From the IMG/VR virus record IMGVR_UViG_3300045988_083449, positions 481 through 64,480 of that record: a stretch of DNA of 64,000 nucleotides; one strand, given 5' to 3'. The notes beneath the pieces were generated by a model, which was given only the letters and a program-made list of their open reading frames with translations, did not search any database and was not told the DNA's origin. Source of the stretch: a virus. Positions 2,583-29,807 of this stretch are shown piece after piece. The position numbers were made by a program, and so were the translations under genes. Position 1 is the first letter of the stretch. Every line of letters begins with the position of its first letter.

Positions 2583-3347
2583 TTAGTTCTCGATCTTTGA
2601 AAGAACATCAACAATGGACGCAGTGTCTTCAATCGGAAGGACACGTCTTTTCTCGTCACGTACTTTTGCGTGGTACCCACGGATGTCGTCCGTGATGACG
2701 TAACGTTTGATAGAGACTTTTCCGTCTTCTCCTTTAACGGAAACCTTTACACCTGCAAGGACGTTATCGAAGATGCCCATGAGCTGACTGCGCATCTTTG
2801 CGCCCTGAACGTTCGGATAAACTTCACGAGCTCCATCTTCGTTGTCGGATTCAACAGACAAGGCAGAGAGAACGACGTGATAGGGAAGGTCACGAATGAA
2901 CTTGCATGAGGCAAGGAACAATTGGTTGTAAGTGGCGAACTTCTCAAACCCGTTGACCTTCTTGCCAGTCTTAACGGCTGTAGCTTCGGCCTGAGCAGTT
3001 GCGTATTCCATCACCATATCAGAGAGCTCGGTGATTGAATCCACCATAATCCATTTGTATCCCTGATCTTTGAACTCTTTCGTGAGCATCATCTTCACAA
3101 TGCCTTTAAAAGAGAACACACCTTTATCAGGATCATGAGCTCCATCGAAAGAGGAGAACGGAAGGTAGTCGATTCCAGCTCCACGGATTGAAGACAATCC
3201 GCTTTCACCTGAAAGGACGAATCCCTTTCCGTACTTCTCTTGGTAATACTTGGCTTGGGTTGTTTTACCCCAACCAGCGTTTGCGTAAACCAATGTCTTT
3301 AAATAAGACGTGGTTTCGTCTGCTGTATTGAACGGCTTAAATGCCAT
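2583..3347 (-). CDS. Sak4-like RecA-fold ATPase (AAA_24-type recombination protein)
   Basis: Walker A in LVYANAGWGKTTQA and a Walker-B-like WIMVDSITE. The ~250-aa size is typical of phage Sak4 proteins. Confidence 0.6.
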   Translation of the reverse strand: MAFKPFNTADETTSYLKTLVYANAGWGKTTQAKYYQEKYGKGFVLSGESGLSSIRGAGIDYLPFSSFDGAHDPDKGVFSFKGIVKMMLTKEFKDQGYKWIMVDSITELSDMVMEYATAQAEATAVKTGKKVNGFEKFATYNQLFLASCKFIRDLPYHVVLSALSVESDNEDGAREVYPNVQGAKMRSQLMGIFDNVLAGVKVSVKGEDGKVSIKRYVITDDIRGYHAKVRDEKRRVLPIEDTASIVDVLSKIEN

Positions 3348-3360
3348 TAGTTACTTCTCC

Positions 3361-3726
3361 TTATTTAATAATGCGAACAACGACTGCTGCTTCAGGCGTG
3401 AAACAGTTATTGAGCACATCTCTTTCTTCTTCAGATAAAGACTCATAGATAGAGTCAGCGATTGAGAGTTTCCGACTGACAAACTCGGGAAGTGTCTGAC
3501 CGTAAAGAGCTTCCAGTTCTTTACTATCCCATTTCCTTGTTTTCTTTTCTTTCACTTTTACAGTGTGGTCAGAGCCGTTGATTTCTAACTCCACATCAGA
3601 AACCATTCCGGTCTCAACAATGGTATTAAGTAACGTCTCCTTGGCTTGTTTCGCTTCCTTTGCGAAATTCTTTGCTTGATATGACTTGCGAACGAAATCA
3701 TCTACAAGCGCTTTGAGGTCTGCCAT
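3361..3726 (-). CDS. hypothetical protein
   Basis: 121-aa ORF; first gene of the leftward block that diverges from the primase gene. Confidence 0.5.
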   Translation of the reverse strand: MADLKALVDDFVRKSYQAKNFAKEAKQAKETLLNTIVETGMVSDVELEINGSDHTVKVKEKKTRKWDSKELEALYGQTLPEFVSRKLSIADSIYESLSEEERDVLNNCFTPEAAVVVRIIK

Positions 3727-3817
3727 GTTTCAATTCCTTTCCTATTTGAATGAAAACAATGGTAATATAACTGAAAATTTTGAGTAATACAAGTAAATAT
3801 TTTCTCAAGGAAGTTAA

Positions 3818-5821
3818 ATGTCAGACGAAATAAAAGACGACGAGTTCTCTGAATACATGAAAGAGGTTCGGGAGTCTGCTGATCTTTATTTAGAACTTGG
3901 CTTATCCATCATTCCTATCAGCCTGACCGAAAAGAAACCTGCTATTTCATGGAAAGAATTTCAGTCAAGGCAACCGACAGAGGAGGAAGTTGACAGTTGG
4001 TTTAATGACGGAGTGCCCTGTGAAGGAGGCACAACTAAAGTCTTCGGACTCGGAATTGTCACGGGTGCGATTAGTAATTTAGTCGTTGTTGACTGTGACA
4101 ATCAGGAGGCTTTGGAGTACGCAGTAAACGACGGAGAAATTTTTAGTAATGTTACGGTAAAGACTACACGTGGAAACCACTTCTACTTCAGACATCCTGG
4201 CTTCCCTGTGCCGAACAAGGTTGGAAGTGTCAGCACAGACTGGCCCAACTTAAACGGCCTTGATCTCAGAGGCGACGGCGGTTACGTTGTCGCTCCTCCG
4301 TCTTTGAAGTGGAGCACAGAAGAGAATCGCTTCGTTCATCAGTACAGGTTTGAAACTTCTGAAGATATTCATGATGCATTTCTTTGGTTACCTACGTACA
4401 AAGGAATGCCCATTGTCGGGGAGGAACCTCAGCAACGACAGATTATGTCTAACGAGGACTTCTCGTTTGAACAACTAAGCCTCGAAGGTTGTAGAACTAG
4501 CGACACCGTTTGGGACGAGATAAAGGCCAAAACAAAAAAGCTCGGAAGAAAACTCCGAGAAGGAGAAGGTCGAAACATTTGGGTCACTCGTTACGTTGGT
4601 TACTGTTTGACGCTGGGTATGGATGTTGAGCAGATCAAGGTAGCAGCTCAACAGTTCATGGCTGAGTTCTTTGACTCTCTCCTTCCTGAGAGTGAATACA
4701 TGGCAACTATTCACAGTGTTGTTGACCGTGATAAACGTCGTCATCCTGAACGTTACGAAGCGAAGGATAAATACAACAACGCCAACCCTGTACGACAAGC
4801 AAGGGCTAAAGCTATCAGCCTGATCACTCCTAAGAACTTAGCTGAGTTGCACCAGTTGAACGGTGACAGGAACTTCCTGATTGACCCGTTCATATCACCT
4901 CAGTCCATCACGCAGGTTGTTGGTTTCAACGGTCACGGTAAAACACTGTGGCTGATGTCGTTGTTATGGGCGGCTTCTCTTGGCAAATCATTCGGAGCAG
5001 GTTCAGTGGACAAAGCTGTCAACGTTTTGTACTTGGACTACGAACTCTCTGCTACCACGATTGTTGACCGCATTGATCAACTCTCTACAGGCTTGGGAGA
5101 TATGCCTGAGAGTATGAGTATTTGGGCGGCTTCCGTATCTGATATTGATCTTGACCTCAACAGCGGACAAGGAATTACCAACCTTCAGAAGTTACTGGAA
5201 CAAACCAATCCTCAGATCGTTGTCATCGACACGGTGCGTTCGGCTTGGCAAGGAATGGAAGAGAACTCACCAGCAGCTTGGGTCAAAGTCAATCAACTTT
5301 GCATGGCGATACGTAACACAGGACGTGCAGTCGTGTTCGTACACCATAGAAACAAACCTAGTGCCAACGGTTTCGGTCGTGAAGCAGGTTCAACCGCACA
5401 GCTTAAAGACTTAGACACACAGATCATCGTAACAAAGGTAATTAAGGACGACGATCAAGCTCAACGTGAAGCCGGATTGCCGGATGCAATTACCAAAGTT
5501 GTGACCAACGACAAAGGTGCAGTTAATACCGCATGGAATTACTTAGCGTCTAAATGTCCGCTTGGTGCGGAACTCACAGCAGTATTCCAAATCGCATTCG
5601 GCAAGGTAAGACAAGTTACTGAAAACCACGAGACATCGTATGTCGGATTGTGTACCGACATCGGAACGGGGAAGACGATCTATGTCTCGTCTCTGTCTCC
5701 CCGTCAACGAGCAGAAGCATTGTACCGAGCAGGTAAGTCACCGCTTGATATTGCTATGCGCCTCAAGATTCCACGCAACGTCATCCAACGTTGGGTAGAA
5801 AAAACTGAAACGTCAAACTAA
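3818..5821 (+). CDS. bifunctional primase-polymerase / P-loop helicase
   Basis: N-terminal prim-pol signatures: LSIIPI..KKPAISWKEFQ, VVDCDN and DLRGDGGYVVAPPS. C-terminal P-loop GFNGHGKT, Walker B VVIDT and HHRNK resemble RepA/DnaB-like helicases. Confidence 0.75.
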   Translation: MSDEIKDDEFSEYMKEVRESADLYLELGLSIIPISLTEKKPAISWKEFQSRQPTEEEVDSWFNDGVPCEGGTTKVFGLGIVTGAISNLVVVDCDNQEALEYAVNDGEIFSNVTVKTTRGNHFYFRHPGFPVPNKVGSVSTDWPNLNGLDLRGDGGYVVAPPSLKWSTEENRFVHQYRFETSEDIHDAFLWLPTYKGMPIVGEEPQQRQIMSNEDFSFEQLSLEGCRTSDTVWDEIKAKTKKLGRKLREGEGRNIWVTRYVGYCLTLGMDVEQIKVAAQQFMAEFFDSLLPESEYMATIHSVVDRDKRRHPERYEAKDKYNNANPVRQARAKAISLITPKNLAELHQLNGDRNFLIDPFISPQSITQVVGFNGHGKTLWLMSLLWAASLGKSFGAGSVDKAVNVLYLDYELSATTIVDRIDQLSTGLGDMPESMSIWAASVSDIDLDLNSGQGITNLQKLLEQTNPQIVVIDTVRSAWQGMEENSPAAWVKVNQLCMAIRNTGRAVVFVHHRNKPSANGFGREAGSTAQLKDLDTQIIVTKVIKDDDQAQREAGLPDAITKVVTNDKGAVNTAWNYLASKCPLGAELTAVFQIAFGKVRQVTENHETSYVGLCTDIGTGKTIYVSSLSPRQRAEALYRAGKSPLDIAMRLKIPRNVIQRWVEKTETSN

Positions 5822-7971: not shown

Positions 7972-8799
7972 CTAGATTTGTTCAACGATTGATTCCAGCT
8001 TGTTCCTCACTAAGCCTCTGTATCGCATCGTCATTTGCAGATTGGAATGTCCCAATGCAGAAGCTATGTCCGCCAAATCTCCTCCGTATGAAGCGATTAA
8101 GGCGGCGTATGCGTGTCTTAGATCGTGAAGTCTCAGCTCTTGATAGCCGAGAATTTCACAGCAGACTTTCAATGCTTTGCCTAAGACACGTGATGCTTCG
8201 TTGTGATTGGGGATTCTCTTTCCGTCCGGATATAAAAAGGGAACAGCTCCGCACTGGAACAAACATCTAAGTTCTTTTGTGAGCGGAACAACTCGTTCGA
8301 TTGTCTTTGTCCTTCTGCCCACAGGTTTGTGAATCACAATGGCTTTGCCGTCAGACCTGATGTCCTGATAGGTAAACCTCATTGCTTCACCCAAACGTGC
8401 ACCTGTATGTGCAAGAAGGAGAAGGGAAGGGTATGCCCAAGGATAAACTCTCTTTGCAACTTCGAGAATCATATGAAGTTGTTCAGGTGATATGTCTACA
8501 TAACGAGTGTTGTTTACGTAAGGAAGCGGTATCGGAGTAGGACGACTGATCAAGGCCGAACGATAGCCGAAGTTTCTTATTGCTCTTACCTGTACGAGAA
8601 TCCTTTGCCGTGTTGCAGGAGCTTTGCCTTCCCAATGATGGGAGGCAATCGCTGCCAACTCCACGCCGTCCGTTTCAGCGTCCAGCTCACCGAACACATG
8701 ACGAATGGCTCTCAGCTTCTCTAAAAGAGAAGCCCCAAGTTGCGGGGCTTCTAGAAGTTTGTACGCTATGTACTTATCTATCAGATCATTTACTCTCAT
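7972..8799 (-). CDS. tyrosine recombinase, short XerC/D-like form
   Basis: HTGARLGE (Arg), HDLRH, and ALGHSNLQMTMRYRG (His...Tyr) form the catalytic signature. At 275 aa it has no long N-terminal arm-binding domain. Confidence 0.8.
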   Translation of the reverse strand: MRVNDLIDKYIAYKLLEAPQLGASLLEKLRAIRHVFGELDAETDGVELAAIASHHWEGKAPATRQRILVQVRAIRNFGYRSALISRPTPIPLPYVNNTRYVDISPEQLHMILEVAKRVYPWAYPSLLLLAHTGARLGEAMRFTYQDIRSDGKAIVIHKPVGRRTKTIERVVPLTKELRCLFQCGAVPFLYPDGKRIPNHNEASRVLGKALKVCCEILGYQELRLHDLRHAYAALIASYGGDLADIASALGHSNLQMTMRYRGLVRNKLESIVEQI

Positions 8800-18427: not shown

Positions 18428-19635
18428 TACCTGCGTTTGAGACAAGCCTTGGGATAGGTAAACCTGATGCTGTGATGGTTCCCGAGAGTCAGTTGAAGGA
18501 AGTCAACAAGAAAGTTGCTCCCAACGTTAGGTATGCAATGAAGTCGGCCAACATTGCTTCGCTGTATGCGAAGAGAGCAGTAAGACCTGATGAGATCGCG
18601 GCATTAAGACGTGAGATGTTTGAAGTCGTTAGGAGGAATTTGCCGGAAGTAGAACAGGTCATCCTTGGGAATAAGGCTTGGAAATCTTCTCAGGTTCGTT
18701 TGTATGCGTTGCTGACGGAACGTGTAATTCCGAAGATGCAGAGTGTGTCGATAGAAGACAACACGCAGAAGAGAGTGGAGGATTTGTCGATTGAGGAATT
18801 GGAGGCTTTGGCGCTTGGTAAGAAACGAGAGGTTCAGGAACGTCTTAACACGATTGAAATTGAGGCTAAGGAGATTGAAGCATCCGAAAGCAGAGTGGAA
18901 ACCGAAGAGACAAGACGAGAGGTTGTACGAGAACTGGCAAACATTCAAGCTCTTGATGATGCGGAGAAGAAATATATAACTCGACTGGCGATGCAGAAGC
19001 CTGAAGAAGCGGCAAAGCTCGAAGAGAAGAGACGTGACAGACCGCAGACGTATCACACACCTGAGCAGATAGCAAAGATCAGAGAGAAGAACGGTAGAAG
19101 TCTTGAGCAGAGATGGAGAGACAAGGGGTACTCAGAGGAAGAGATCAAGCAGAAGATGGCTGAAGTAGTGGCTAAAAGAGCCGCTACAAGGCGTAAGACG
19201 AAGGAGCTTGAAGATCAGGACATTGGGTATGGATGCGGATTAAGGTCTGCGGAACGAGCGATTACCGAAGACATCAAGGAGTCTCGGAATAAAACGTTTC
19301 GGGAGTTCAGAGTAAATCCGTTAAAAGGAAGACGAAGCAAGAGTGTTGTTCAACGTGAGATTGAAAAGAAACAAGCCGCAGAACAGAGACGTTACGACAG
19401 AGAAGTCAACCCCTTGGTGTTCACGACAGGTAAGGGATTGGGCATTGAAGAGGACATCACTGGGATTCACCTTCAGGAATTAAAACAGCGTTATCCGCAC
19501 ATCTTTGAGGTGAGCGAGGAAGATCAGGAAAGACTCAAACAAATAGACAGAGAGGTTTATGCAAAACGTAAAAACTCAGGTAACACAGCAGGAAGCGGCA
19601 AGATACCTGCTGAAGATCAAGAAAGCGGCTCTTAG
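18394..19635 (+). CDS. highly charged protein; possible small terminase subunit
   Basis: Lies immediately upstream of and overlapping the large terminase gene. It is K/E/R-rich. Assigned by position only. Confidence 0.3.
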   Translation: MEEAVQTEDRLIPAFETSLGIGKPDAVMVPESQLKEVNKKVAPNVRYAMKSANIASLYAKRAVRPDEIAALRREMFEVVRRNLPEVEQVILGNKAWKSSQVRLYALLTERVIPKMQSVSIEDNTQKRVEDLSIEELEALALGKKREVQERLNTIEIEAKEIEASESRVETEETRREVVRELANIQALDDAEKKYITRLAMQKPEEAAKLEEKRRDRPQTYHTPEQIAKIREKNGRSLEQRWRDKGYSEEEIKQKMAEVVAKRAATRRKTKELEDQDIGYGCGLRSAERAITEDIKESRNKTFREFRVNPLKGRRSKSVVQREIEKKQAAEQRRYDREVNPLVFTTGKGLGIEEDITGIHLQELKQRYPHIFEVSEEDQERLKQIDREVYAKRKNSGNTAGSGKIPAEDQESGS

Positions 19636-21274
19636 TTATCCGAATTTTATGGACTACAACTATCCTGATTTTGTCCGAGCGGACTTTCAGGAAGAGTTGG
19701 TTAAGACGTTGGACTTGTTAGAGAAGGATGAGTTGATCAACAGTCACGGAGTTCCGATTCGTAAGCTCTTGATCACAATGCCTCCTCGTCATGCGAAGTC
19801 TTTCTATGGGACGATTAACTTTCCTGCTTACTGCATGATGCGAGACCCGACACGAGAGATCATGGTAGCTGGGTATAACTCGGAGTTGGCTGCTACCTTC
19901 GGCAGACAGACACGTGAGATCGTAACGAATCCTGCGAACTTGAAGTCGTTTCCTAAGTTCAAACTCAGCCAGGAAAGTCGAGCTGTGGACTTTTGGAAGA
20001 CGGTAGAAGGCGGAGCTTACTATGCAGTGGGTATGGGTGGTACAACAACAGGCCGTGGTGCAAATATCCTGATCGTTGACGACCCGTATAAGACACGGGA
20101 AGAGGCCGATAGTACCGTCAAGAGAAACAAGATTTGGGACTTCTACACAGCGTCATTACTTACTCGTATGCAACCGCATAGAAACGGTAAACCGCCGATT
20201 CTTATTGTTACGCATACACGTTGGAATCCTGATGACATCGGTGCTCGAATCATGGAGTCCGACGAGTTCAAACGTGGGGAATGGTTTCATCTGAATTATC
20301 CGGCTATTCGGACGATTGAATCCGGAGTTGAAATCAAACGGAGTGACCTTCCTAAGGATGACCCGAGGTATATTCCTGCACGTATTATCGTTAACGGGAA
20401 GTACGTAAACATCACAAGCTCGTACATGAACAAGTCTAACAAGTACGTAAGCTGTGAAAGGGAAGTTGCCCTTTGGCCTGAACGTTTTCCGCTGAAGGAA
20501 CTCAAGAAAATTCGAGAACGAATCGGAGACCGAGAGTTTGAAGCTCTGTATCAGCAGAATCCTTACGTCTTAGGCGGCAACATTATCAAGATCAGTTGGT
20601 TTAAAAGATATACACCTGAGACTTGTCCGACGGAATTTCATGCGATTGTGATTGGTTTGGATACTGCGTTTAAGACCAAGAGCTGGAACGACTTCTCAGT
20701 GATTACGGTAGCTGGGATTACAGAGTTGGGAGACATCTACATCCTGAAGGTTTACCGAGAGAAGCTGGAATATCCCGACCTTAAACGTAAGCTCGTGAAC
20801 ATCAACTCCGTATGGAGAGGAAGAGGGCTTAGAGGCTGGTATGTTGAAGACGCTGCTTCGGGTCAGTCACTGATTCAGGATATGAGACACGGAAGTTCGT
20901 TGACGATTCTTCCGTGGAAACCTGGCACAAACGATAAGACCAATCGTTGTACCTCGATTACTCCGATCATTGAAGGCGGACGAGTGTTTATTCCTGAAGA
21001 GGCTGATTGGTTAGACGATTGGGAAGTTGAGCTGAGTCAGTTTCCTTCCGGCAAACATGATGACCAAGTGGACTCATTGGTAATCGTGATTGATGTTGCT
21101 TCTAAGATGGTTGTAACGGGAGAGAAGTTCTTTAATGAATCCATTGGGAACTACATTGTCTCTCCCGACTTCAAAGGTGACCTAATGTTTGGAAACGACC
21201 TGCACGAAGACAAGTACGGTTGGCAGGGCTCGTTCGGTCAGTCGTTAGGTGAGTTTGCTAGTTGGGGTGAATGA
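19559..21274 (+). CDS. terL: terminase large subunit
   Basis: ATPase motifs MPPRHAKS (Walker-A-like) and ILIVDDPYK (Walker B). The C-terminal nuclease shows GLDTAF...HDDQVDSL. An alternative start is the Met at 19649. Confidence 0.8.
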   Translation: MQNVKTQVTQQEAARYLLKIKKAALSYPNFMDYNYPDFVRADFQEELVKTLDLLEKDELINSHGVPIRKLLITMPPRHAKSFYGTINFPAYCMMRDPTREIMVAGYNSELAATFGRQTREIVTNPANLKSFPKFKLSQESRAVDFWKTVEGGAYYAVGMGGTTTGRGANILIVDDPYKTREEADSTVKRNKIWDFYTASLLTRMQPHRNGKPPILIVTHTRWNPDDIGARIMESDEFKRGEWFHLNYPAIRTIESGVEIKRSDLPKDDPRYIPARIIVNGKYVNITSSYMNKSNKYVSCEREVALWPERFPLKELKKIRERIGDREFEALYQQNPYVLGGNIIKISWFKRYTPETCPTEFHAIVIGLDTAFKTKSWNDFSVITVAGITELGDIYILKVYREKLEYPDLKRKLVNINSVWRGRGLRGWYVEDAASGQSLIQDMRHGSSLTILPWKPGTNDKTNRCTSITPIIEGGRVFIPEEADWLDDWEVELSQFPSGKHDDQVDSLVIVIDVASKMVVTGEKFFNESIGNYIVSPDFKGDLMFGNDLHEDKYGWQGSFGQSLGEFASWGE

Positions 21275-21277
21275 AAA

Positions 21278-21823
21278 TTACATTTGACTGCTAATTCTAT
21301 TGACCTCTCTTTCTTTCATCATCCTTGTCACCACAAGGCTGGTGTACTCGATATAAAAATCACCAAAACTATCACGTGCATCAATTATTAAATTAGGAAA
21401 TTTCCATATCCAAACGGAAATACGTGGGATATGCTTAACGGAAGAAGGTTTTCCGTATCGGTTTTCCAGTGCCTCTAGGTAATTCGGTATAGGACTCTCA
21501 TTGGCTAATTTCCTATCACCATCGAACAATAATGAGAAACAGATGGAAAAGACTTTGCCAGTCTTTTTATCGAAAGAATATCTAGTCCGGTATTCTCCTG
21601 GAAGATCGAAACAGCCTTCTAGTGAATAAGACTCGTCTTCGTTTTTTTCTAATCGACACTTCTTTTCATGTGCAATTTTCTTTACATCGTCTATCGTATC
21701 TTTTCCCAATTCGATTCCGAGTATTTTAAAAGTTTCTTGACTACTTAAATCTCTTTGGTTGTCAGCGCTTTGGGCGCCAACCGCTGAGAAAAAGAGTAAT
21801 AACATGACTACCAATTTTTTCAT
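21278..21823 (-). CDS. secreted protein (moron)
   Basis: Signal peptide MKKLVVMLLLFFSAVGAQS. AT-rich and convergent with terL. Confidence 0.5.
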   Translation of the reverse strand: MKKLVVMLLLFFSAVGAQSADNQRDLSSQETFKILGIELGKDTIDDVKKIAHEKKCRLEKNEDESYSLEGCFDLPGEYRTRYSFDKKTGKVFSICFSLLFDGDRKLANESPIPNYLEALENRYGKPSSVKHIPRISVWIWKFPNLIIDARDSFGDFYIEYTSLVVTRMMKEREVNRISSQM

Positions 21824-21849
21824 TTAGCTTATCCACCTGTTTGAAAGTT

Positions 21850-22185
21850 TTAATTTTTTAATAATGCCAAGAACTCCTTGAAACTGATTGGCTCTCCGTC
21901 GGAGTTGCGAATACTTTTGGCCTCTGATAAATATTCAATTAACTTATCAGGAAGGAAACCGTCTCTGATTTTGATCGAATAAGTAGGATGTTGCGAATCA
22001 TAGAGAAGTGTGCTTCTTTCTATAGAAAAGTCATTATTGTCTTTCTTAAAAATACTTTTCAGACAAACAGGACGAGCCTGTAGTTTTAGTTCACTTTCAT
22101 CAATTAGAGAATCTAAAAAAGAAGAATCTTCAAGCTCAAGAAGGAAAGGTTTTTGAGACTTGGAATAGGTAATTACTTGTATCAT
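21850..22185 (-). CDS. hypothetical protein
   Basis: ATG at 22185 (MIQVITY) follows AAGGA. The track start at 22221 is TTG. Confidence 0.4.
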   Translation of the reverse strand: MIQVITYSKSQKPFLLELEDSSFLDSLIDESELKLQARPVCLKSIFKKDNNDFSIERSTLLYDSQHPTYSIKIRDGFLPDKLIEYLSEAKSIRNSDGEPISFKEFLALLKN

Positions 22186-22252
22186 TTTTTTCCTTAGGAT
22201 GGATATGAAATTCTTTAGCAAGATGATCTAACAGTCTATTTTCTTTGTCAAT

Positions 22253-22279
22253 AAAAAAAGACCCCCATGCAGGGAGTCT
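22253..22279 (-). terminator. intrinsic terminator
   Basis: AGAC(C)CCC-ATGCA-GGG(A)GTCT hairpin followed by 7 U on the minus strand. Confidence 0.55.
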
Positions 22280-22302
22280 ATACATTGACGAAGAAATAGG
22301 TT

Positions 22303-22635
22303 CTACTGATTCATTCGTCGCTCAACCACTTCCATAATGGCGTAATTAGCTAAGTCGAGGAGGGTTTCTTCGATAGGTTCGTCTACCCTAGCAAGATCAA
22401 AATCTAAAGAAAGTGTTTTTAACCTTTCAAGTTTGTCAGATAAGCGAACTAAGATTGCACAAGGAAACTCTTGCCTTACCTTGTGAAAAGAGTTCCCGTA
22501 ATCGTGATTCTTGTCAATAAAAGTTCTATGAAGTTCTTCAAGGACTTCCTTGTGAACGTCATACATAGTAACCTGATTAGGGTCGGTCTTAATCATTTCA
22601 GGTGGAATTTCGGGAAAGACTCTATCTTGATTCAT
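22303..22635 (-). CDS. DUF1599-like protein (nucleotide-modification-associated domain)
   Basis: FIDKNHDYGNSFHKV...ILVRLSDKLERLKTL matches the remembered DUF1599 pattern KN.DYG...vRl.DKl.Rl. The start is taken at the internal Met (MNQDRV). Confidence 0.5.
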   Translation of the reverse strand: MNQDRVFPEIPPEMIKTDPNQVTMYDVHKEVLEELHRTFIDKNHDYGNSFHKVRQEFPCAILVRLSDKLERLKTLSLDFDLARVDEPIEETLLDLANYAIMEVVERRMNQ

Positions 22636-23101
22636 TGATTTTCTCCTTGAGTTCTGAGATCGGATGTAATGCTTCCTGCGGTACAAACCATGCAGGTCTG
22701 AGTTCGTTGGGATTGTCGAGGTAGGCATCGGTCTTTGCGTCCTTACCTCTAATCCACCCAATGATTTCAAAGGACGGAGCTTTGCCTACAACAAGAATGA
22801 AGATGTCGTCATCGTGATCATTGTCACGGACAATCAGACGACCGTTTGTGTGACGAGAACTCCTGACCTGAAACTGTCCAAGGTCAGGTGCCTTAAAAGT
22901 ATCGACACCGCCTTCCCAGTAAAGGCCAAGAGCTTTAGCGACAGCCATCTCTCCAAAGGCTCCGCAAATGTCGATACCCCATTTTTCATATTCTGTGAGC
23001 TTGATGATGTTCTTGAGTTTCTGCTTGATCGAAGAGATTCTGCGCATCACTCCGACATTAGCAGCCATCGTCATTTCAGCATCAGATAAAACAATTTCCA
23101 T
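22622..23101 (-). CDS. hypothetical; possible PD-(D/E)XK-fold protein
   Basis: GEMAVAKALG...APDLGQFQVRSS...IFILVVG resembles a nuclease-fold arrangement. This is weak. Confidence 0.25.
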   Translation of the reverse strand: MEIVLSDAEMTMAANVGVMRRISSIKQKLKNIIKLTEYEKWGIDICGAFGEMAVAKALGLYWEGGVDTFKAPDLGQFQVRSSRHTNGRLIVRDNDHDDDIFILVVGKAPSFEIIGWIRGKDAKTDAYLDNPNELRPAWFVPQEALHPISELKEKINESR

Positions 23102-23391
23102 TACCTGACACCTTCGTTTAGAAACTTCTTAGGCGGACGATTTAAGTTGTCATCTCTGTCCATGTAGTAAGAGTCAGGGTCAACATCATCGGGGTAGGCT
23201 AGTTCAGCCCAGTAGAGCACGTTAGGTACATTAAAGTCGCCTGTCTCCATAGAGAAGTGAGCGACGGATTGGTTGACAAAAATCTTATCACTGCTTGTTG
23301 TTCCGGCAAGAACAACAGTCAAGTAGGAACCACCTTGTGTAGGTTCTTCTTCGGCATAGTCGTGCCATACCAACTCTTTCTTATTATCCAT
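23101..23391 (-). CDS. hypothetical protein
   Basis: 96-aa ORF with an ATGA-type junction to its neighbour. Confidence 0.45.
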   Translation of the reverse strand: MDNKKELVWHDYAEEEPTQGGSYLTVVLAGTTSSDKIFVNQSVAHFSMETGDFNVPNVLYWAELAYPDDVDPDSYYMDRDDNLNRPPKKFLNEGVR

Positions 23392-23400
23392 TTACATCTC

Positions 23401-23832
23401 CTATAGGATTTTGATCTCTTCGTTGGTTTCGTTTTCCATGTAACGATTACGGTAGTGACCTGAATCGAAACGCTTGGTTTCTCCGTCATCCAACGGATTG
23501 ATCGAAGGTGTTCTTGCAAGTTGGGATGGGAGGGTCACTCCTAGGAGGTAATTGATTCGTCGTGCATGAGCACTCTGCCGAGTCTTTACCATTGCGTAAC
23601 ACTTGTTGCGTCGAGCGTACAACGTGAAGTAATCCTGATTATCGACGCTGAATCGGAATACTTTTTTATCCTTTTCTAATCTGCTTAATGCTTCCCATAC
23701 AGGCTTTAGCGGGTTTTGTTTCTCCTTGCCGATTTGAGTTTCTTCCTGAATCTCTCTTACGGTCTTTGCTTCCAAATTTTGCTTACTCAAGAAACTTAGG
23801 ATTTTGTCTTGGTTTGTTTCTTGAGAATCCAT
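23401..23832 (-). CDS. hypothetical; possible winged-helix DNA-binding protein
   Basis: ILSFLSKQNLEAKTVREIQEETQIGKE...ALSRLEKDKKV resembles a wHTH motif. This is weak. Confidence 0.3.
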   Translation of the reverse strand: MDSQETNQDKILSFLSKQNLEAKTVREIQEETQIGKEKQNPLKPVWEALSRLEKDKKVFRFSVDNQDYFTLYARRNKCYAMVKTRQSAHARRINYLLGVTLPSQLARTPSINPLDDGETKRFDSGHYRNRYMENETNEEIKIL

Positions 23833-23838
23833 AAATGT

Positions 23839-24024
23839 TTACGTTGCTAACTGTTCAACAACAACTCCTACTAATACGATTAAAAGACCAACTGCTAAGT
23901 AACCGTAAACAAACTTGGTTGATTTAGTTCTCAGCATTTCCGATATATCTTTAAACTGATTGAACAAGTACGGTAGGAACATGATTGTTCCGACGTTTAT
24001 GAGAATATTTCCGATCTCTTTCAT
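23839..24024 (-). CDS. small membrane protein
   Basis: 61 aa with two hydrophobic helices. Confidence 0.45.
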   Translation of the reverse strand: MKEIGNILINVGTIMFLPYLFNQFKDISEMLRTKSTKFVYGYLAVGLLIVLVGVVVEQLAT

Positions 24025-24371
24025 TACAGAAAGTCTTTGTGCAGGTTAAGTTCACAGGCGAGACCTTCTTTTTCAAACTGCTGAAGGTACATCGGCGCAT
24101 CAATCTTTGCCCAGTCTGTGATGTGAGCATCCATAGACGGGAAATCAAACAACTGCGTTTCCGCATCCCAATAGGCTAGGCGGATTGAGTAATGTCGGAT
24201 TTTCTTACTGTCCTCGGGATGACGTTTGCGTCTTCCTTCGTTACAGGCGACGAGATACTGCCCTGATTCGTCAGGTAATACGAGTTGATAGTCTTTCCAA
24301 TCAAGCACTTTTCTTCTCCTCTTCAATGCGTATGAGTTGACGTTTAATTTTTTCTGCCATGTATCCGTCAA
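24024..24371 (-). CDS. hypothetical protein; start uncertain
   Basis: The track ATG overlaps the upstream gene by 71 nt. A GTG at 24308 is an alternative start. Confidence 0.4.
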   Translation of the reverse strand: MTDTWQKKLNVNSYALKRRRKVLDWKDYQLVLPDESGQYLVACNEGRRKRHPEDSKKIRHYSIRLAYWDAETQLFDFPSMDAHITDWAKIDAPMYLQQFEKEGLACELNLHKDFL

Positions 24372-24657
24372 GCAGAATTTTTATTTTGGTGTTGTCAGGT
24401 TGATTTATTAGGTATTCAATCTGCTTCGCTAAGATCAACACGTCCGCCAACTCCTTCATGTTGGCGATACAGGCTGACTTCTTTTTCCGACCATAATATT
24501 TTTTGGCTTTGCGGCTGGATTCAAGGTGGCTGTAGCCGAGGAACTTAAAGAAGGATGCTGAATACTCCGAACATTCTTCAGCTAATTTGACCGTTTGGTT
24601 ATTGATGCCGTAGTGGTCGGCAATGATTTTTATTCCACGTTTACATTCAGGAAGCAT
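24301..24657 (-). CDS. MazG-like nucleotide pyrophosphohydrolase fold (tentative)
   Basis: KLAEECSEY...ELADVLILAKQIEYL resembles the paired E-rich helices of MazG-type proteins. Confidence 0.35.
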   Translation of the reverse strand: MLPECKRGIKIIADHYGINNQTVKLAEECSEYSASFFKFLGYSHLESSRKAKKYYGRKKKSACIANMKELADVLILAKQIEYLINQPDNTKIKILLDGYMAEKIKRQLIRIEEEKKSA

Positions 24658-25073
24658 TACTTACCCTTAGTCGCTTTCTTGACTTCTACTTCAAGTTGAT
24701 TCTTGATGTATTCCTCTGCCCAACGTAAGGCTCCCTGAGAGATGTTCTGTACCTGCGTGTTGTTGGTAATAGCAGGAAGTACAATCATGGCGGCTACCGT
24801 GCTACGTGAAGGGAGGAACAATGAGCCGAGAAAGGCGACAAACACAATTGGGCCTAGCACTCTATTTAGCCTATTGGTTACATATCGAAACCTTCTATAT
24901 TCCCTAATCACGCAATCACTGTAATCATTATTAGAAACATTAATGTATCCGAGAGTTTTGAAAACATTAGTAAGGAGTAAGACAACACCTCCAAAGAAGA
25001 CAATAAGTCCACACGCTTTATCAATTGAATTAAGTTGCCCAATGAAGTAAATGAGAAGAGGTGAGAGTTCCAT
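24657..25073 (-). CDS. membrane protein
   Basis: 138 aa with 3-4 hydrophobic segments. Confidence 0.5.
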   Translation of the reverse strand: MELSPLLIYFIGQLNSIDKACGLIVFFGGVVLLLTNVFKTLGYINVSNNDYSDCVIREYRRFRYVTNRLNRVLGPIVFVAFLGSLFLPSRSTVAAMIVLPAITNNTQVQNISQGALRWAEEYIKNQLEVEVKKATKGK

Positions 25074-25252
25074 TATTTATCCTTCGACTCAATGCGGTTA
25101 ACCTTGGTGACAAACATAAAGGAGCTGGATGGGGTTTCGTCCTTAGTTGAGGGATTTTTGTCTTCCTGAGACTTAGAATCCTTTCTCTTCATTTCTCGGA
25201 CGAGAATATCCTGTTCAGCAAAATTTCTTATTACATCGTTACGGTAGTTCAT
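25073..25252 (-). CDS. small hypothetical protein (59 aa), just below the track cutoff
   Basis: My translation is MNYRNDVIRNFAEQDILVREMKRKDSKSQ... It has an ATGA overlap upstream and a TAATG overlap downstream. Confidence 0.35.
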   Translation of the reverse strand: MNYRNDVIRNFAEQDILVREMKRKDSKSQEDKNPSTKDETPSSSFMFVTKVNRIESKDK

Positions 25253-25485
25253 TCTTCATCCTCGTCATGAAGTCCTACTTCTTCGGCAAGTTCGTCCACT
25301 TCTTCTATAAAATCCCAAAAGAGTTCAAGGACTTCTCCTTCTGCTTTAGCTTCTGCTTCCGAGATTTCGTTAATCTCCTTAAGATCGGATAGGTCTTTTT
25401 CCCACCTGTCTGCAAGTTGCTTGAGTTTCGACCAATACCCGTCTAAACGTTTCTTGTGATCGCATTGAATTACTTTCACCGTCAT
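25249..25485 (-). CDS. hypothetical acidic protein
   Basis: 78-aa ORF. Confidence 0.45.
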   Translation of the reverse strand: MTVKVIQCDHKKRLDGYWSKLKQLADRWEKDLSDLKEINEISEAEAKAEGEVLELFWDFIEEVDELAEEVGLHDEDEE

Positions 25486-25703
25486 ATCTGTTCTTCCTTT
25501 GCTTTTTTAATTGCGTACGAAAGGTTGTCCATTAGTTCAAAAAGTGCATCAGTTGGGAAGGGAGGCGAACGCCGTTCAGGAGGAGTAAAAGCCTTTCTCC
25601 TTACTGATAGACGGTCAACAATTTTCAGTAGACACCGTAAAAGGTTTAGACAGGCTTCTGCGTCTTCAATCGCTAGTTCAACTTTCTTCATTCTTATTTC
25701 CAA
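25482..25703 (-). CDS. hypothetical protein
   Basis: 73-aa ORF with a 4-nt overlap with its neighbour. Confidence 0.45.
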   Translation of the reverse strand: MEIRMKKVELAIEDAEACLNLLRCLLKIVDRLSVRRKAFTPPERRSPPFPTDALFELMDNLSYAIKKAKEEQI

Positions 25704-26173
25704 TGACCGTGATACCAGCGCTTAAAGATGCTTCCGCACCATTCCCAAAAAGCTAATCCAGCGGCAATGGGAAGAGGAGCCCAAATAGCCCATTCCTTAG
25801 GTACAAGGTGTGCGATTGTGTAGAGGGATGCTCCTAACAGCGTGAAGATAAGAACGACTTTGATGGTAAGGAAAAAGTAATCCCAAAAGACTTTGGTCAT
25901 GTTCGCTCTGATTTTTTCCATCAGGTCGATCTTCTCTTGGGCTTTGTTTTCTTGGCTGACCAGTTCGGCGATTCTTTCGTTGATCTTATCCTCGAAAGCA
26001 ATCTCTATGTCACTAGCCATACGGACACCATCAGGTCTGCTTTCGACAATCCTTTCAAAGTAAGGAAGCAGTGTGTTGCAATAACGTTTGTCGTAAGAAT
26101 CAATGTCAGGGTTATGTGCAATGTTCTTTAACTTCTGAGCTAGAAATTGACAATCAAAGTAACTGAGTTTCAT
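25694..26173 (-). CDS. membrane protein
   Basis: 159 aa with C-terminal hydrophobic helices. Confidence 0.45.
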   Translation of the reverse strand: MKLSYFDCQFLAQKLKNIAHNPDIDSYDKRYCNTLLPYFERIVESRPDGVRMASDIEIAFEDKINERIAELVSQENKAQEKIDLMEKIRANMTKVFWDYFFLTIKVVLIFTLLGASLYTIAHLVPKEWAIWAPLPIAAGLAFWEWCGSIFKRWYHGHWK

Positions 26174-26574
26174 TTTTTATTTCCTGTGTAAGGTTCCGGT
26201 AAAGCTCTGAAAGCCACTGCTTCGGGGTAATAAGAAGGCGTGTTTTCCCACCATTTGTCACAACCTTCAGGGCCATAAGTTGCATGAAAATCTCTGATAG
26301 ATAAGTCTCCGTACTTGTCCTGTACAAGCCATTCCCCTTCATTAGGAGGAGTGATTTGAGGGTAAGGATTCCAACCATTAGGGTTGTAAGTCAATTCAAA
26401 CTCGTTCTTGAAAATATCGAATACGACTGAACCAGCCGTAGGAGAAAGACCTTTACGAAGGGTTATTACTGATTCTATGGTGCACATTTGCTGACAGCAT
26501 TCACTGTCAATCTCTTCATCGGTGAACCATGTGTTGAGCTTCTGTTTTAGCTTTATATCTTTCAGTGTCCACAT
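26170..26574 (-). CDS. hypothetical protein
   Basis: 134-aa ORF; first gene after the tRNA cluster on the minus strand. Confidence 0.45.
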   Translation of the reverse strand: MWTLKDIKLKQKLNTWFTDEEIDSECCQQMCTIESVITLRKGLSPTAGSVVFDIFKNEFELTYNPNGWNPYPQITPPNEGEWLVQDKYGDLSIRDFHATYGPEGCDKWWENTPSYYPEAVAFRALPEPYTGNKK

Positions 26575-26588
26575 TGTGAATCCTTGGG

Positions 26589-26681
26589 TGCAGAGGGAGA
26601 GATTTGAACTCTCAATGCCGATCTGATCGTGCTTCGATTCACGCCATGTCGTCGGTGTTTCGCCTTCCTAACAGCCTCTGC
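26589..26681 (-). tRNA. tRNA-like gene with aberrant, extended anticodon arm (possible pseudo-tRNA or decoy)
   Basis: Acceptor stem GCAGAGG/CCTCTGC (7 bp), D arm GTT...AAC with a GG-containing loop, and T arm GAGAG-TTCAAAT-CTCTC are all canonical. Between D and T arms lies a 38-nt CCGA...TCGG arm with no Y-U-NNN-R loop. Confidence 0.5.
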
Positions 26682-26698
26682 ATTTAATCGTTACATGA

Positions 26699-26770
26699 TT
26701 CGGAGGGTGGGACTCGAACCCACGACACACCCTTATTAAAGGCCGCTCTTGCCGACTGAGCTACCTCCGA
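26699..26770 (-). tRNA. tRNA with shortened anticodon arm; anticodon unclear (AAU if the loop is UUAAUAA)
   Basis: Acceptor TCGGAGG/CCTCCGA, D arm GCTC-AGTCGGCAA-GAGC and T arm GTGGG-TTCGAGT-CCCAC are canonical. The anticodon arm GCCTTTAATAAGGGT forms either 5 bp with a 5-nt loop or 4 bp with a 7-nt loop. Total length is 72 nt. Confidence 0.6.
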
Positions 26771-26775
26771 CCGTT

Positions 26776-26955
26776 CGTATTTCCTTCAACAAAATGGCGC
26801 CTGTTGCCGGTCATACAGGACTGTCAGAGGCCAACCGACAGACCTTACACAGATGTTCGCTACACACCTGCACACCACCTCAAAAACCTACACGGACTCC
26901 GAGACACAAGCCTTGCGAGACCTATATGTCTCGGATAGTGCAGGTCAACTCCTAG
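26776..26955 (-). other. 180-nt structured spacer inside the tRNA cluster
   Basis: There is no T-loop. A long-range 8-bp helix ACCUGCAC/GUGCAGGU is present. UCCGAGAC can pair with either of two GUCUCG(GA) copies. Confidence 0.4.
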
Positions 26956-27030
26956 TGGAGCGGGTAGAGAGACTCGAACTCTCGTCAACGGCTTGGAAGG
27001 CCGTTGTTCTACCAGTTGAACCATACCCGC
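26956..27030 (-). tRNA. tRNA-Gly (UCC), CCA encoded
   Basis: Full cloverleaf read by hand: GCGGGTA / GTTC-AACTGGTA-GAAC / ACGGC-CTTCCAA-GCCGT / GAGAG-TTCGAGT-CTCTC / TACCCGC-T-CCA. Confidence 0.9.
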
Positions 27031-27038
27031 AACAACCT

Positions 27039-27128
27039 TGGTCGGAAGGGATGGATTTGAACCACCGAGTCACCACTAGGGGAAACGGATTTACAGTCCG
27101 CCGCTTTCAACCGCTCAGCCACCTTCCG
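27039..27128 (-). tRNA. tRNA-Tyr (GUA), type II with long variable arm, CCA encoded
   Basis: Acceptor CGGAAGG/CCTTCCG, anticodon arm GCGGA-CTGTAAA-TCCGT, an 18-nt variable region, and T arm GGTGG-TTCAAAT-CCATC followed by A-CCA. Confidence 0.85.
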
Positions 27129-27134
27129 ATTTAG

Positions 27135-27893
27135 TTTTAAACCCCCTGTGTATCAAGAGGCTTAAAACTGAGGTCTGTAAAGGTGAAAAACAGACCTCAG
27201 AGTGGAAATACAACTTTCTTTACTGAAGTTACTTAATGTGATTCCTTTCATTAAGTAACGTAATAATAGTAACGTTAAAGGAAATAAATGTAAAGCTCAA
27301 GGTAATAGTGATTACCCTAATAACGACATAACTTATTGAATTTTAAATAATTAAAGACGAAATAATCTCTAATAACTATAAATAGTTATTACTGTAATTA
27401 AGAGAAATATTTATCTGTAGAAATGTTTAATTGTTTCTACGATACTGTAGTAACGTTTCTCGGATTACATATCGGAATGTAATCCGACCTGCACTTCGCC
27501 CTACCCAGCCGAGACTAGGTTAGGGCACAGGTCAAATCACATCAGGAGATTTTTCAACCTCTCCTGTGGGTTCCTGCTGTAGAGCTCGTTGGTGCTCGGC
27601 TCCGCTCTGCACCAGTCCTTTGGGGTCTCTACTCAACCTCTCCCAAGATAGCTAATCACTCAAAGGCCAGTCGTTCACACCACCACTCCTTTGAACTTTT
27701 GCTATCGGCTTCGGACAATTCCCAAGTAGCCTTGTAATTCATCGACCTCCGTCTACAGTTCATCACTGCTTACCGAATCGACGTTCTCATTATAGGTATT
27801 AAGTGAAATGAATGTAATGCTTAATGTTTAGGTATTTACCCATATATAGCAGTTTTCAAACGATATTTTTGTGTCTAAGTCATTCTCTCTTTT
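27135..27893. other. 759-bp ORF-free, hairpin-dense region; candidate large structured ncRNA or origin
   Basis: No track ORF of 60 aa or more in any frame. I count at least 9 perfect stems of 6-10 bp, for example GTTACTTAAT/ATTAAGTAAC, CGGATTACAT/ATGTAATCCG, AATAACTAT/ATAGTTATT and GAGGTCTG/CAGACCTC. Confidence 0.5.
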
Positions 27894-29807
27894 ATGACTA
27901 GCGCTTGGTTTGATTACAGAAATCAAAGCTCACCGAATCAACATATTGCGTTCGTAACTGATCTGTCTCAGCATCAGACGGCTTTGATGAATTATCAGGA
28001 CATCTCTGATCTTCTGACTGAAGATCAAGAGAGGAGACTTGTTGATTATGTGAAGGTAATCAGCGAAATGTCCTATGACTCTATCTCGAAACGTTACGAC
28101 CACTGGAAGGAAAGTGACCGTGCTCACGACTTGTATGTTCCGCCGGATGCAACACGCTTCAGAAACAAGGTGGTGATTGCAGATACCCGTGCAATTAGTG
28201 ACACGGTGCTGACGTACTTCATGGCGGCTATCACCGGGCGTAATCCAATGTTCCAGCTAGAGGGGCTTAATCGAGAGTCTAGAAAGGCTTCTGCGTTGCT
28301 GGAAAGGGTACTGCACCAGCAGATGCGTAAAACTGCGGCAGACGCTCATTTAGCCATGCTCTTCCTAGATTCAATTCGGTATGGCTTCGCACCTACAAAG
28401 GTTGTGTGGTCAGACAAGCTCAACACGAACCTGCTGATCAACGCCGACCCGAGAAAGACATTCCCTGACCCGAGAGTTCAAGCAGGTGATGTGCAGAATA
28501 TGCAGTTCATTGTGTTCTCCGAACACGCCTCAGGGTCAGCCTTGGTAAGAACAGGTCTCTATCCGAAGTTAATCAAATATCCTCGGATGCTTGAGAACGA
28601 TATTGAATGCGCTGGTTGGAGCAGCCATACGTGGCACAAGGAGGAAGGCAATGGGTGGAATATCAATCAAACCGAGATTAACGACAGTAACGACGTGGGC
28701 TACTTCCGTGTGGGCAAGAGTCATGTCGTGGACGAAGCATGGATTGTGTTCAACGGGGCTGACATCGGTATGCCAGGACTCGGACAAGTGTGGATGGTTG
28801 TGGCGATTTTGGACGAGCGTTTCGTCATTCGTTGCCAACTTAATCCGTATGGTCAGAGCTTTCCTTGTGCGATTGGAGGATTTGGGTTCGATAGTCATAA
28901 GACACATCAGCAATCCCTTTACGATCTGCTTTTACCTTTACATAACCTTGGCACTTGGCTGCTTCGTTCTCGCATTGACAACGTACAGTCCGCTTTAAAC
29001 AACCTTATCTTCGTTGACCCGCAACGTGTAGCGGTTCACGACTTGATTAACCGAAACCCTTGGGGTGTCGTTAGAACACTTCCGGGCACAAAACCTGGAG
29101 ATGGCATTCAGATTGCACAGATACCTGACGTTACTCGTGGACATTGGCAGGATATACAGCTCTTGGGTGACATGAAGCAGAGACTTTCCGCCGCTTCTGA
29201 CGCTCAACAGGGTATGCCGACATCCGACGGCATCCGTTCCGCCACTGAAATCTCACGATTGACCCAGTTAGGTAGCCAACGACTTGGTGTTCTGTCTCGG
29301 ATTATTTCTGCAACAACGATACGTCCTATCGTCCGAATGATGGTAAGCAACGTACAGGATGCGTTGCGTTTCAATACGTCGTTGCGAGTGTCCGAGACAG
29401 ATGCCAATACGATCTTCGCTTCTATGTCTGAGGATGGTTATGTGGATATTGACCAGAATATGCTGGAAGGCGATGTTGAATACCTTGTTGTAGACGGAAC
29501 ACTGCCAGTTGAACCGACACGTTCTCCTGAAACTTGGTTGCAGATTATGCAGGTTGTCGGTCAGGCAGGTATGCAGATGGAATACGACATGGGAAGATTG
29601 GTTGAAGAGTCTATCCGTGCAATGGGTGTTCCCGATATTGACCAATTCAAGATTGATCAGAAGCGTCAAGCTCGTGAAGGTCTTACTCCGTCTCAGAAGA
29701 TGGCGATTATGGAGAAGATGCGAGGTCAGTCTTCCGTCATGCCGCAGGAACAAATCGAACAGGAAGTTATGAAAGGGAACCTCGTTCCCATGAAGGATGC
29801 AATGTAA
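27894..29807 (+). CDS. portal protein (putative)
   Basis: 637 aa; first late gene, upstream of the scaffold and capsid genes. Assigned by size and position only. Confidence 0.5.
   Translation: MTSAWFDYRNQSSPNQHIAFVTDLSQHQTALMNYQDISDLLTEDQERRLVDYVKVISEMSYDSISKRYDHWKESDRAHDLYVPPDATRFRNKVVIADTRAISDTVLTYFMAAITGRNPMFQLEGLNRESRKASALLERVLHQQMRKTAADAHLAMLFLDSIRYGFAPTKVVWSDKLNTNLLINADPRKTFPDPRVQAGDVQNMQFIVFSEHASGSALVRTGLYPKLIKYPRMLENDIECAGWSSHTWHKEEGNGWNINQTEINDSNDVGYFRVGKSHVVDEAWIVFNGADIGMPGLGQVWMVVAILDERFVIRCQLNPYGQSFPCAIGGFGFDSHKTHQQSLYDLLLPLHNLGTWLLRSRIDNVQSALNNLIFVDPQRVAVHDLINRNPWGVVRTLPGTKPGDGIQIAQIPDVTRGHWQDIQLLGDMKQRLSAASDAQQGMPTSDGIRSATEISRLTQLGSQRLGVLSRIISATTIRPIVRMMVSNVQDALRFNTSLRVSETDANTIFASMSEDGYVDIDQNMLEGDVEYLVVDGTLPVEPTRSPETWLQIMQVVGQAGMQMEYDMGRLVEESIRAMGVPDIDQFKIDQKRQAREGLTPSQKMAIMEKMRGQSSVMPQEQIEQEVMKGNLVPMKDAM

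Follow-up and report, generated by a model that had tools for sequence, protein, structure and literature searches.

What does a phage keep in 759 bp of DNA without a protein gene, wedged between its tRNA genes and its portal gene? The question is posed by positions 27135-27893 of the window, by which we mean the whole stretch of 64,000 nucleotides (nt) that was analysed. An earlier note, made from the letters alone, had offered several answers: a large structured non-coding RNA, be it GOLLD, ROOL or a new one, or else a replication origin or a packaging site. Our analysis points to a smaller unit, a structured non-coding RNA gene of ~351 nt and 50% GC on the minus strand at ~27433-27783, which we call type A and which was recognised by its conservation, its fold and its covariation. 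The evidence that type A is an RNA gene is good, and we estimate a probability of roughly 0.6 that it is a new structured non-coding RNA gene whose product is stable, folded and trans-acting. Overall, type A is a narrowly distributed new structured RNA in a setting like that of GOLLD and ROOL, with a neutral spacer alongside.

Much of what had been read from the letters was borne out. No open reading frame (ORF) of 60 amino acids (aa) or more lies in 27135-27893; the longest one wholly inside has 36 aa, and others have 30-34 aa. All nine inverted repeats that had been listed were recovered in their places, with GGTAAT/ATTACC seen at 27300-27316. The left side is AT-rich (21-28% GC at 27250-27450) and the right side GC-rich (45-55% at 27450-27750), with 44.9% GC in the whole window. 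The claimed density of hairpins is also real, as both halves fold better than dinucleotide shuffles, and the minus strand does so better in each. For the GC-rich half, the minus strand reached -125.5 kcal/mol (z -6.4; none of 100 shuffles as good) and the plus strand -98.8 kcal/mol (z -3.7); for the AT-rich half, the z values were -6.2 and -3.2. To the left, the minus strand immediately continues with genes for tRNA-Tyr, tRNA-Gly and tRNA-Ile and with a tRNA-like element that scores below threshold.

What did not hold is the reading of all 759 bp as a single RNA. The two halves are unlike, and only ~27433-27783 behaves as a constrained element. The suggestion of a new RNA therefore has to be split: it stands for the right half, which shows purifying selection and compensatory and strand-specific, G.U-preserving changes, and fails for the AT-rich left half, which shows neutral drift, insertions and deletions, and no covariation. 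The left half is mostly a spacer (27201-27432, 21-35% GC) that evolves at an approximately neutral rate. Among strains, a deletion of 38 nt and an insertion of 25 nt occur there, and a hairpin within it (27233-27264) piles up uncompensated mismatches and is partly deleted in strain L003.

The constraint on type A is seen most clearly in a comparison of strains. Sequences of the same phage species were gathered from IMG/VR, Logan, ENA and JGI, which yielded the RNA segment in 32 copies with 26 distinct sequences, and nucleotide diversity was computed across 27 of the strains. Diversity is 0.0052 in the core (27456-27646), 0.043 in the 5' part of the RNA (27707-27783), and 0.167, above the level of synonymous sites, in a variable hairpin between the two (27647-27706). 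Outside the RNA, it amounts to 0.107 in the AT-rich spacer (here 27201-27455), 0.072 in the hairpins beside the tRNA (27129-27200), and 0.065 in the segment 27784-27893, which holds the promoter and the region upstream of the portal (27796-27893, plus strand). The first, second and third codon positions of the portal gene have diversities of 0.013, 0.0009 and 0.106. Only nine of 191 nt in the core vary, against 64 expected at the portal third-position rate (binomial P ~1e-22), and the core sequence is identical even in strains whose neighbouring 131-aa protein is only 76-80% identical to that of the window. These comparisons show a 190-nt core under very strong purifying selection.

A segment can also look conserved without having a function of its own, for example when recently acquired or hitch-hiking DNA, or a decayed gene or tRNA remnant, has just gone through a sweep. 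Such a history would fit the presence of type A in a single phage species and the mosaic nature of the segment, whose left and right flanks have different histories. However, the flanks on both sides, including the portal synonymous sites, are 10-20 times more diverse than the core in the same strains. Neither an ORF remnant nor a tRNA-like match was found in the segment, and substitutions in its stems are compensated, as described below. Taken together, we consider an explanation without function highly improbable.

In the predicted structure, type A begins 5' with hairpin H1 (27740-27783, minus strand, 16 predicted pairs), followed by a small hairpin (H2/3), a hypervariable long hairpin (H4/5, 27647-27706), a nearly invariant core (27461-27646, predicted helices H6-H13), and the 3' hairpins H13 and H14. 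Most of the fold is a row of hairpins, to which one multi-branch domain is added. The consensus structure was built from the first five sequences and then scored on 24 distinct ones, in which 99.1% of the pair cells are standard on the minus strand, compared to 89.0% on the plus strand. Covariation among the strains speaks for the structure: across the 24 sequences, compensatory double changes occur at eight predicted pairs. The AT-rich half shows no covariation. They fill 58 cells, against 21 ± 4.5 in shuffled alignments, a number reached by none of 500 shuffles. When the partners were slid by one to three columns, double changes remained at only zero to one pairs. Several supporting changes, at pairs 21/58, 22/57, 36/42, 192/206 and 241/252, come from strains that were added after the structure had been derived.

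The individual helices contribute unequally. In H1, pair 34/44 changes from A-U to G-C in three distinct sequences, and five one-sided changes all leave the minus strand paired (as G.U, U.G, A-U or U-A). H4/5 retains its stem with the sequence replaced; it occurs as two major alleles at ~50:50 and some minor ones, with compensatory double changes at six of 21 pairs, for example from AAAGG/CCUUU to ACGUG/CACGU. In the core, pair 241/252 goes from A-U to U-A in L104, the most diverged strain, and one-sided changes at pairs 192/206, 274/309, 275/303 and 287/292 retain the pairing. Some candidates were rejected along the way. A helix of GAAUUAC with GUGAUUU, by which the single-sequence fold is closed over a long range, is broken by variants, another of columns 9-13 with 346-350 falls in the promoter, and pair 194/203 is broken in L104. 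A small protein encoded in the core was likewise dismissed, as the 34-aa ORF there loses its TTG start in L104 and no ORF exceeds 36 aa.

The one-sided variants also indicate which strand matters. Pairing is kept on the minus strand only in ten variant types and on the plus strand only in one (sign test, 0.006). As judged from these substitutions, compensatory and G.U-type changes maintain the predicted helices, and they do so on the minus strand only. An element acting as double-stranded DNA does not predict such an asymmetry, which therefore argues for a minus-strand RNA.

This asymmetry bears directly on the proposal that the region works at the DNA level, as a replication origin, a pac or cos site, a genome terminus or a recombination site. 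The general appearance of the locus would suit such a role: a long non-coding stretch, an AT-rich block beside a GC-rich one, many inverted repeats, and short, AT-rich direct repeats. Moreover, four of the six independent contigs with exactly the portal of the window end inside the AT-rich spacer, at ~27332, 27368, 27431 and 27437. These breaks, however, lie at four different positions, as expected for mixed-strain assembly, which probably failed where a conserved block meets a polymorphic one; a physical end is thus not the probable cause. The AT-rich part drifts neutrally with insertions and deletions, its direct repeats have just two copies each, and the G.U-compatible, strand-specific substitutions in the conserved part are not explained by double-stranded DNA. 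Furthermore, ~60 relatives with ~60% identical portals, mostly from aquatic viromes, lack the region entirely and have a gap of only 35-59 nt between terminase and portal. In contigs of 63-64 kb, the distance from the portal to the integrase end is always 27.8-28.8 kb, and both integrated and circular junctions were seen at that end. Since the genome or attachment ends are found beside the integrase, ~28 kb away, they do not lie in 27135-27893, and a terminus in this region is unlikely. Several contigs with the portal of the window are 97-143 kb long. An origin or packaging site, as the earlier note had offered for the alternative, was thus not upheld, and any DNA-level role appears quite improbable.

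Type A belongs to no Rfam family. With cmscan, the window was compared to the 4227 families of Rfam 15 at the gathering score, and the 1.6 kb from 26400 to 28000 also at E<=10. Only tRNAs came out above chance; there was no GOLLD, ROOL, drum, pRNA or other family in the region. GOLLD, ROOL, drum, pRNA, transfer-messenger RNA (tmRNA), RNase P RNA and introns are all contained in the Rfam library. Specifically, no Rfam match was obtained for tmRNA, RNase P RNA, 6S RNA, signal recognition particle (SRP) RNA, group I-II introns, pRNA or riboswitches, and ARAGORN called no tmRNA. The identification as GOLLD or ROOL has to be given up, as neither model matched and the constrained element, at ~350 nt, is too short.

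Searches for homologues remained within the species. With blastn, only the tRNAs of 26400-28000 matched among 50,697 phage records, and nhmmer retrieved only near-identical strains from 80 portal-related loci and the sister loci. A covariance model built from the type A core (R1) had no match outside the same phage species, be it in the sister loci, in phages with 68-70% identical portals, in 83 further sources, or in a third clade of related phages. The large collections were covered by exact or gapped pattern scans only: two core patterns led to the same five contigs each time in a viral contig collection and to nothing in a genome contig collection, and one core pattern in metagenome contigs led to seven copies of the same phage and one chance match in a GC-rich coding region.

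The analogy with structured RNAs beside prophage tRNAs nevertheless proved apt as a description of the genomic setting. GOLLD and ROOL are prophage RNAs often found near tRNA islands, with lengths of >800 nt and ~581 nt, respectively (PMC12286853, PMC5737381). Type A is, like them, non-coding, highly structured, and placed in a prophage directly beside a tRNA island. As in GOLLD, moreover, its 3' part is conserved and its 5' part variable (PMC12286853). One could hence suspect that type A is GOLLD, ROOL or another known large RNA, so strongly diverged that Rfam fails to recognise it. A further hint in this direction would be a 7-nt complementarity between two loops (AGCCGAG, 27595-27601; CUCGGCU, 27507-27513), as GOLLD and ROOL form homo-oligomeric, RNA-only cages through kissing loops and A-minor contacts; in type A, however, the complementarity is at the level expected by chance in 350 nt. 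None of the 4227 models matched at E<=10 even in a search space of 1.6 kb, type A has ~351 nt, and it resembles neither drum nor the RNA of the sister phages described below. It is further set apart from GOLLD and ROOL by its betaproteobacterial host (Parasutterella) and its confinement to one phage species, and from ROOL by its predicted fold, in which hairpins in a row predominate and only one domain is multi-branched. Because size, sequence and model match are not shared, type A is not a member of GOLLD or ROOL, and we give very little credence to a hidden member of a known family.

Two other known RNAs deserve comparison. Drum RNA (RF02958) is, similar to type A, a small structured RNA of unknown function, and a related phage has one in the homologous tRNA island. 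It measures only ~110 nt, though, is followed by a terminator (PMC5737381), and has no match in the window even at E<=10. In that related phage (L150; NCBI GCA_003555745.1, QWCE01000133.1), the drum RNA lies in the interval between tRNA-Trp and tRNA-Ile (L150:4376-4483, plus strand) and scores 73.2 bits against a gathering score of 43. The pRNA of phage phi29 forms a ring through complementary hairpin loops. The type A gene likewise lies beside the portal and terminase genes and has the two loops with chance-level complementarity mentioned above, yet it has no match to the Rfam pRNA model, its phage has a conventional large terminase, and relatives package their genomes without type A.

The core holds one more repeated feature. 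An 11-mer, GGAGAGGUUGA, occurs twice in it on the minus strand, at 27554-27564 and 27633-27643, 79 nt apart. No exact copy exists elsewhere in the window, and two matches with one mismatch are within chance. A search of the genome for targets of this motif or of the apical loop gave nothing above chance.

Further context for type A comes from sister phages. Other gut phage contigs encode relatives of the first ORF of the cassette downstream of the tRNAs (134 aa), which fall into two tiers of 59-72% and 47-49% identity. In every sister-clade locus in which both could be located, the promoter motif of type A, TATAATGAGAA, together with homologous upstream DNA, lies ~500 nt before a gene for tRNA-Asn. 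The stretch from this promoter up to tRNA-Asn is filled, without a spacer, by a previously undescribed RNA of ~500 nt, which we call type B (L091:5622-6131, plus strand; also in L092, L093, L138-L145 and L150-L153). Its 163-nt core hardly varies, even in phages whose neighbouring protein has just 48% identity to that of the window, and the changes in its variable flanking hairpins are compensated. Type B has no Rfam match either, and no similarity was found between type A and type B or the drum RNA of the relatives: R1 on the sister loci gave E>=0.16, and a model built from the type B core (R2) reached at best 9 bits on the window (E 0.26).

Type A and type B thus take the same place next to the promoter, as two different RNAs that are equally conserved. 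The order is shared, with a homologous TATAATGAGAA promoter, an RNA, a tRNA island, and homologous ORFs of 134 aa and 159 aa, and so is the pattern of evolution, with an invariant core of ~160-190 nt and variable, compensated hairpins. The differences are that type B, at ~500 nt, abuts tRNA-Asn and occurs in several clades, whereas type A is followed by the AT-rich spacer and tRNA-Asn is missing. A trace of the exchange may have survived. L001 (~4966-5227), L002 and L099 carry an extra segment of 260 nt between tRNA-Tyr and the two hairpins in front of it (window ~27130), and this segment matches the Asn-Tyr spacer of the sister clade, without tRNA-Asn. The segment looks like a leftover from the exchange by which type A arrived, and the lineage of the window therefore appears to have replaced type B and tRNA-Asn by type A and the AT-rich spacer.

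These observations invite a broader, still rather doubtful interpretation. The head of the tRNA island in temperate Parasutterella phages could be an exchangeable slot for large structured RNAs behind one conserved promoter, mostly taken by type B, with type A swapped in here and drum added in one relative, and these RNAs could be functional analogues. If so, they could be self-assembling or protein-sequestering molecules that serve host takeover or counter-defence alongside the tRNAs, and a Gram-negative host would thereby offer small and tractable counterparts of GOLLD and ROOL.

Transcription of type A would start at a predicted sigma-70-like promoter, P1 (27789-27818, minus strand), with a -35 box ATTACA (27818-27813), an 18-nt spacer and a -10 box TATAAT (27794-27789). 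P1 is the best match of the promoter scan in the area (10 of 12 positions) and lies directly upstream of type A; its motif TATAATGAGAA occurs once in the window. The -10 hexamer is invariant in 26 strain sequences; L002-type strains have a different -35 hexamer. Transcripts starting 6-8 nt downstream of P1, at ~27783-27780, would begin at the base of H1. On the 3' side, conservation stops after the second 3' hairpin, at ~27433. Further downstream, the scan detected a second promoter-like site within the spacer, P2 (27294-27266, minus strand; TTTACA at 27294-27289, TACTAT at 27271-27266), both hexamers of which are unchanged in all aligned strains. Directly 5' of tRNA-Tyr, inverted repeats form two adjacent hairpins (27133-27200, minus strand). 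The first of them on this strand, at 27168-27200, is followed by UUUU, and the terminator scan makes no call there. By inspection, substitutions in the two hairpins do not consistently preserve pairing on either strand. Their sequence would be compatible with a processing site or with leaky termination.

This arrangement could also mean that type A is a cis-acting 5' leader, which would modify RNA polymerase for processive antitermination, or organise processing, and so could secure readthrough past 27168-27200 into the tRNAs and the 5-kb cassette. The put elements of phage HK022, leaders of ~70 nt with two hairpins, confer processive antitermination. Type A resembles them as a promoter-proximal folded RNA of a temperate phage, upstream of a long operon and with a terminator-like hairpin in between. 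A leader would be expected immediately downstream of P1, as type A is, with its predicted start at the base of H1, and in front of a hairpin such as the one with UUUU that separates it from the tRNAs. In the sister clades, type B abuts tRNA-Asn and is, by its layout, co-transcribed with it. All evidence for structure and selection fits a leader equally well. A 190-nt invariant core, however, is far larger than a put element, and a near-neutral spacer of variable length (~230-500 nt, with insertions and deletions) that includes P2 separates type A from the tRNAs, which the conserved P2 could drive independently. Moreover, two unrelated RNAs in one slot would both need to act on the same polymerase. 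We therefore regard a cis-acting leader as unlikely, though it is the strongest of the alternatives.

For a trans-acting type A, the following scheme can be proposed. Type A would be transcribed leftward from P1 as the first product of an accessory cassette located between terminase and portal, comprising type A, then tRNA-Tyr, tRNA-Gly and tRNA-Ile, and then ~15 small ORFs. It could be made as its own transcript, or be cut from a longer precursor of RNA and tRNAs, and would accumulate as a stable, folded molecule. The invariant 3' core might form a functional tertiary fold, or a surface that binds a protein or RNA partner, and the hypervariable hairpin would be a peripheral arm that needs only to remain a hairpin. 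The rest of the 759 bp would then be promoter DNA on the right and, on the left, the neutral AT-rich spacer, P2 and the two hairpins in front of the tRNA. As for the role, our leading guess from the context is host takeover or counter-defence, because type A belongs to a prophage tRNA island and the slot holds a Tad2-like gene in a relative.

Several points weigh against reading type A as a trans-acting RNA gene. The terminator and promoter scan found no canonical intrinsic terminator 3' of type A, and promoter use, RNA ends and RNA stability were inferred from sequence. The helices of the core, most of which show no variation, rest on only one compensatory and four one-sided changes, as the core is almost invariant because all known copies of type A come from one phage species. 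Most of the covariation sits in one hairpin, H4/5, with two alleles; these could have spread by recombination, and the covariation events are therefore not independent. The shuffle control overstates the significance, because the strain sequences are close relatives, and related sequences can exceed such a control without any structure. No diverged homologue of type A was found in any of the searches. Finally, the function is only guessed from context, because the ~15 ORFs of the cassette (21278-26574, leftward) have no Pfam, NCBIfam or PADLOC match.

GOLLD, ROOL and drum exemplify the structured RNAs of prophage tRNA islands, which have long been puzzling: for all their elaborate form and their conservation, none has a known function, although some are now known to build RNA-only cages. 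Type A adds a new example outside all known families, from a common human-gut phage for which a likely host genus can be named. It lends itself to experiments through its invariant 190-nt core and through a hairpin that is free in sequence as long as it is paired, and nature has already done a replacement experiment, as in sister phages the same promoter is followed by another RNA. Should type A and type B prove interchangeable, they would offer a compact system for asking what tRNA-island RNAs do. Should they not, type A stays a well-supported but narrowly distributed new RNA gene.

The phage itself is, according to its genes and flanks, a temperate Parasutterella phage. Temperate life is concluded from a tyrosine integrase (62884-63906, minus strand), an integrated state in which this integrase adjoins bacterial genes (autotransporter, adenosine deaminase and DcuC, in L133 and L134), and a circular junction at the integrase end in one assembly (L132). 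A second integrase-like gene lies at 7972-8799 (minus strand). At >=90% identity, the adenosine deaminase in the flank falls into one cluster with a Parasutterella sp. protein, and one portal copy was deposited as Parasutterella excrementihominis, which makes Parasutterella the likely host genus. A Bacteroidota host, considered at one point from the missing Shine-Dalgarno sequence, was dropped in view of these host genes and the named portal entry. A literature search for Parasutterella phages returned nothing relevant. The portal cluster has 149 member sequences, and the 13 full-length members compared are all >99% identical to the portal of the window; the phage species occurs on hundreds of human-gut contigs.

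Among the late genes, the window encodes a conventional large terminase (19559-21274), a portal (27894-29807, plus strand, divergent from the RNA; SU10_portal, PF23899, and PHROGs), and a major head protein. An ORF of 3349 aa (52838-62887, plus strand) has no Pfam or PHROG match, and neither have the ORFs of 848 and 856 aa just upstream of it. The giant ORF had raised the thought of an N4-like phage with hairpin promoters or terminal repeats, which was discarded given the SU10-type portal, the integrase, and a giant ORF without such matches.

The slot between terminase and portal has expanded to 6.6 kb in the species of the window (21278-27893), by an inserted cassette, and holds, leftward, the non-coding region, the tRNAs and the small ORFs. 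PHROGs assigned two of these ORFs to a family of unknown function and gave a MazG-like match for another. In relatives with portals of 68-70% identity, this slot holds two to three minus-strand genes, one of them Tad2-like, and a gap of 250-530 nt. In L103 (7536-7997 and 8472-9001), and also in L100 and L101, a small divergent cassette contains the Tad2-like (PF11195) and DUF5710 genes, and the slot of L103 has a GC-rich non-coding leader of 528 nt too. The third clade (L151-L153) shows a 1.8-kb non-coding stretch at ~3250-5080, with type B and five tRNAs, one of which is an odd tRNA of 100 nt whose anticodon could not be assigned by ARAGORN. Its neighbours are PNKP-like, metallophosphatase, RNase T and DHFR genes, which hints at a theme of RNA repair.

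In the tRNA island of the window, ARAGORN and Rfam agree on tRNA-Tyr(GTA) at 27039-27128, 305 nt downstream of type A, tRNA-Gly(TCC) at 26956-27030, and tRNA-Ile(AAT) at 26699-26770, all on the minus strand. The tRNA-like element of 93 nt on the same strand (26589-26681) scores 28.7 bits against an Rfam tRNA threshold of 29 and is not called by ARAGORN. Both the acceptor arm and the T arm seem intact, and strains differ in the middle of the element; a tRNA with an insert or a long extra arm is a possible reading of the sequence. The 185-nt spacer between tRNA-Gly and tRNA-Ile (26771-26955, minus strand) is GC-rich, folds with a z value of -3.25, and is conserved among strains, with at least one change from U-A to U.G that fits a minus-strand hairpin. 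This spacer may represent another small RNA or a processing element.

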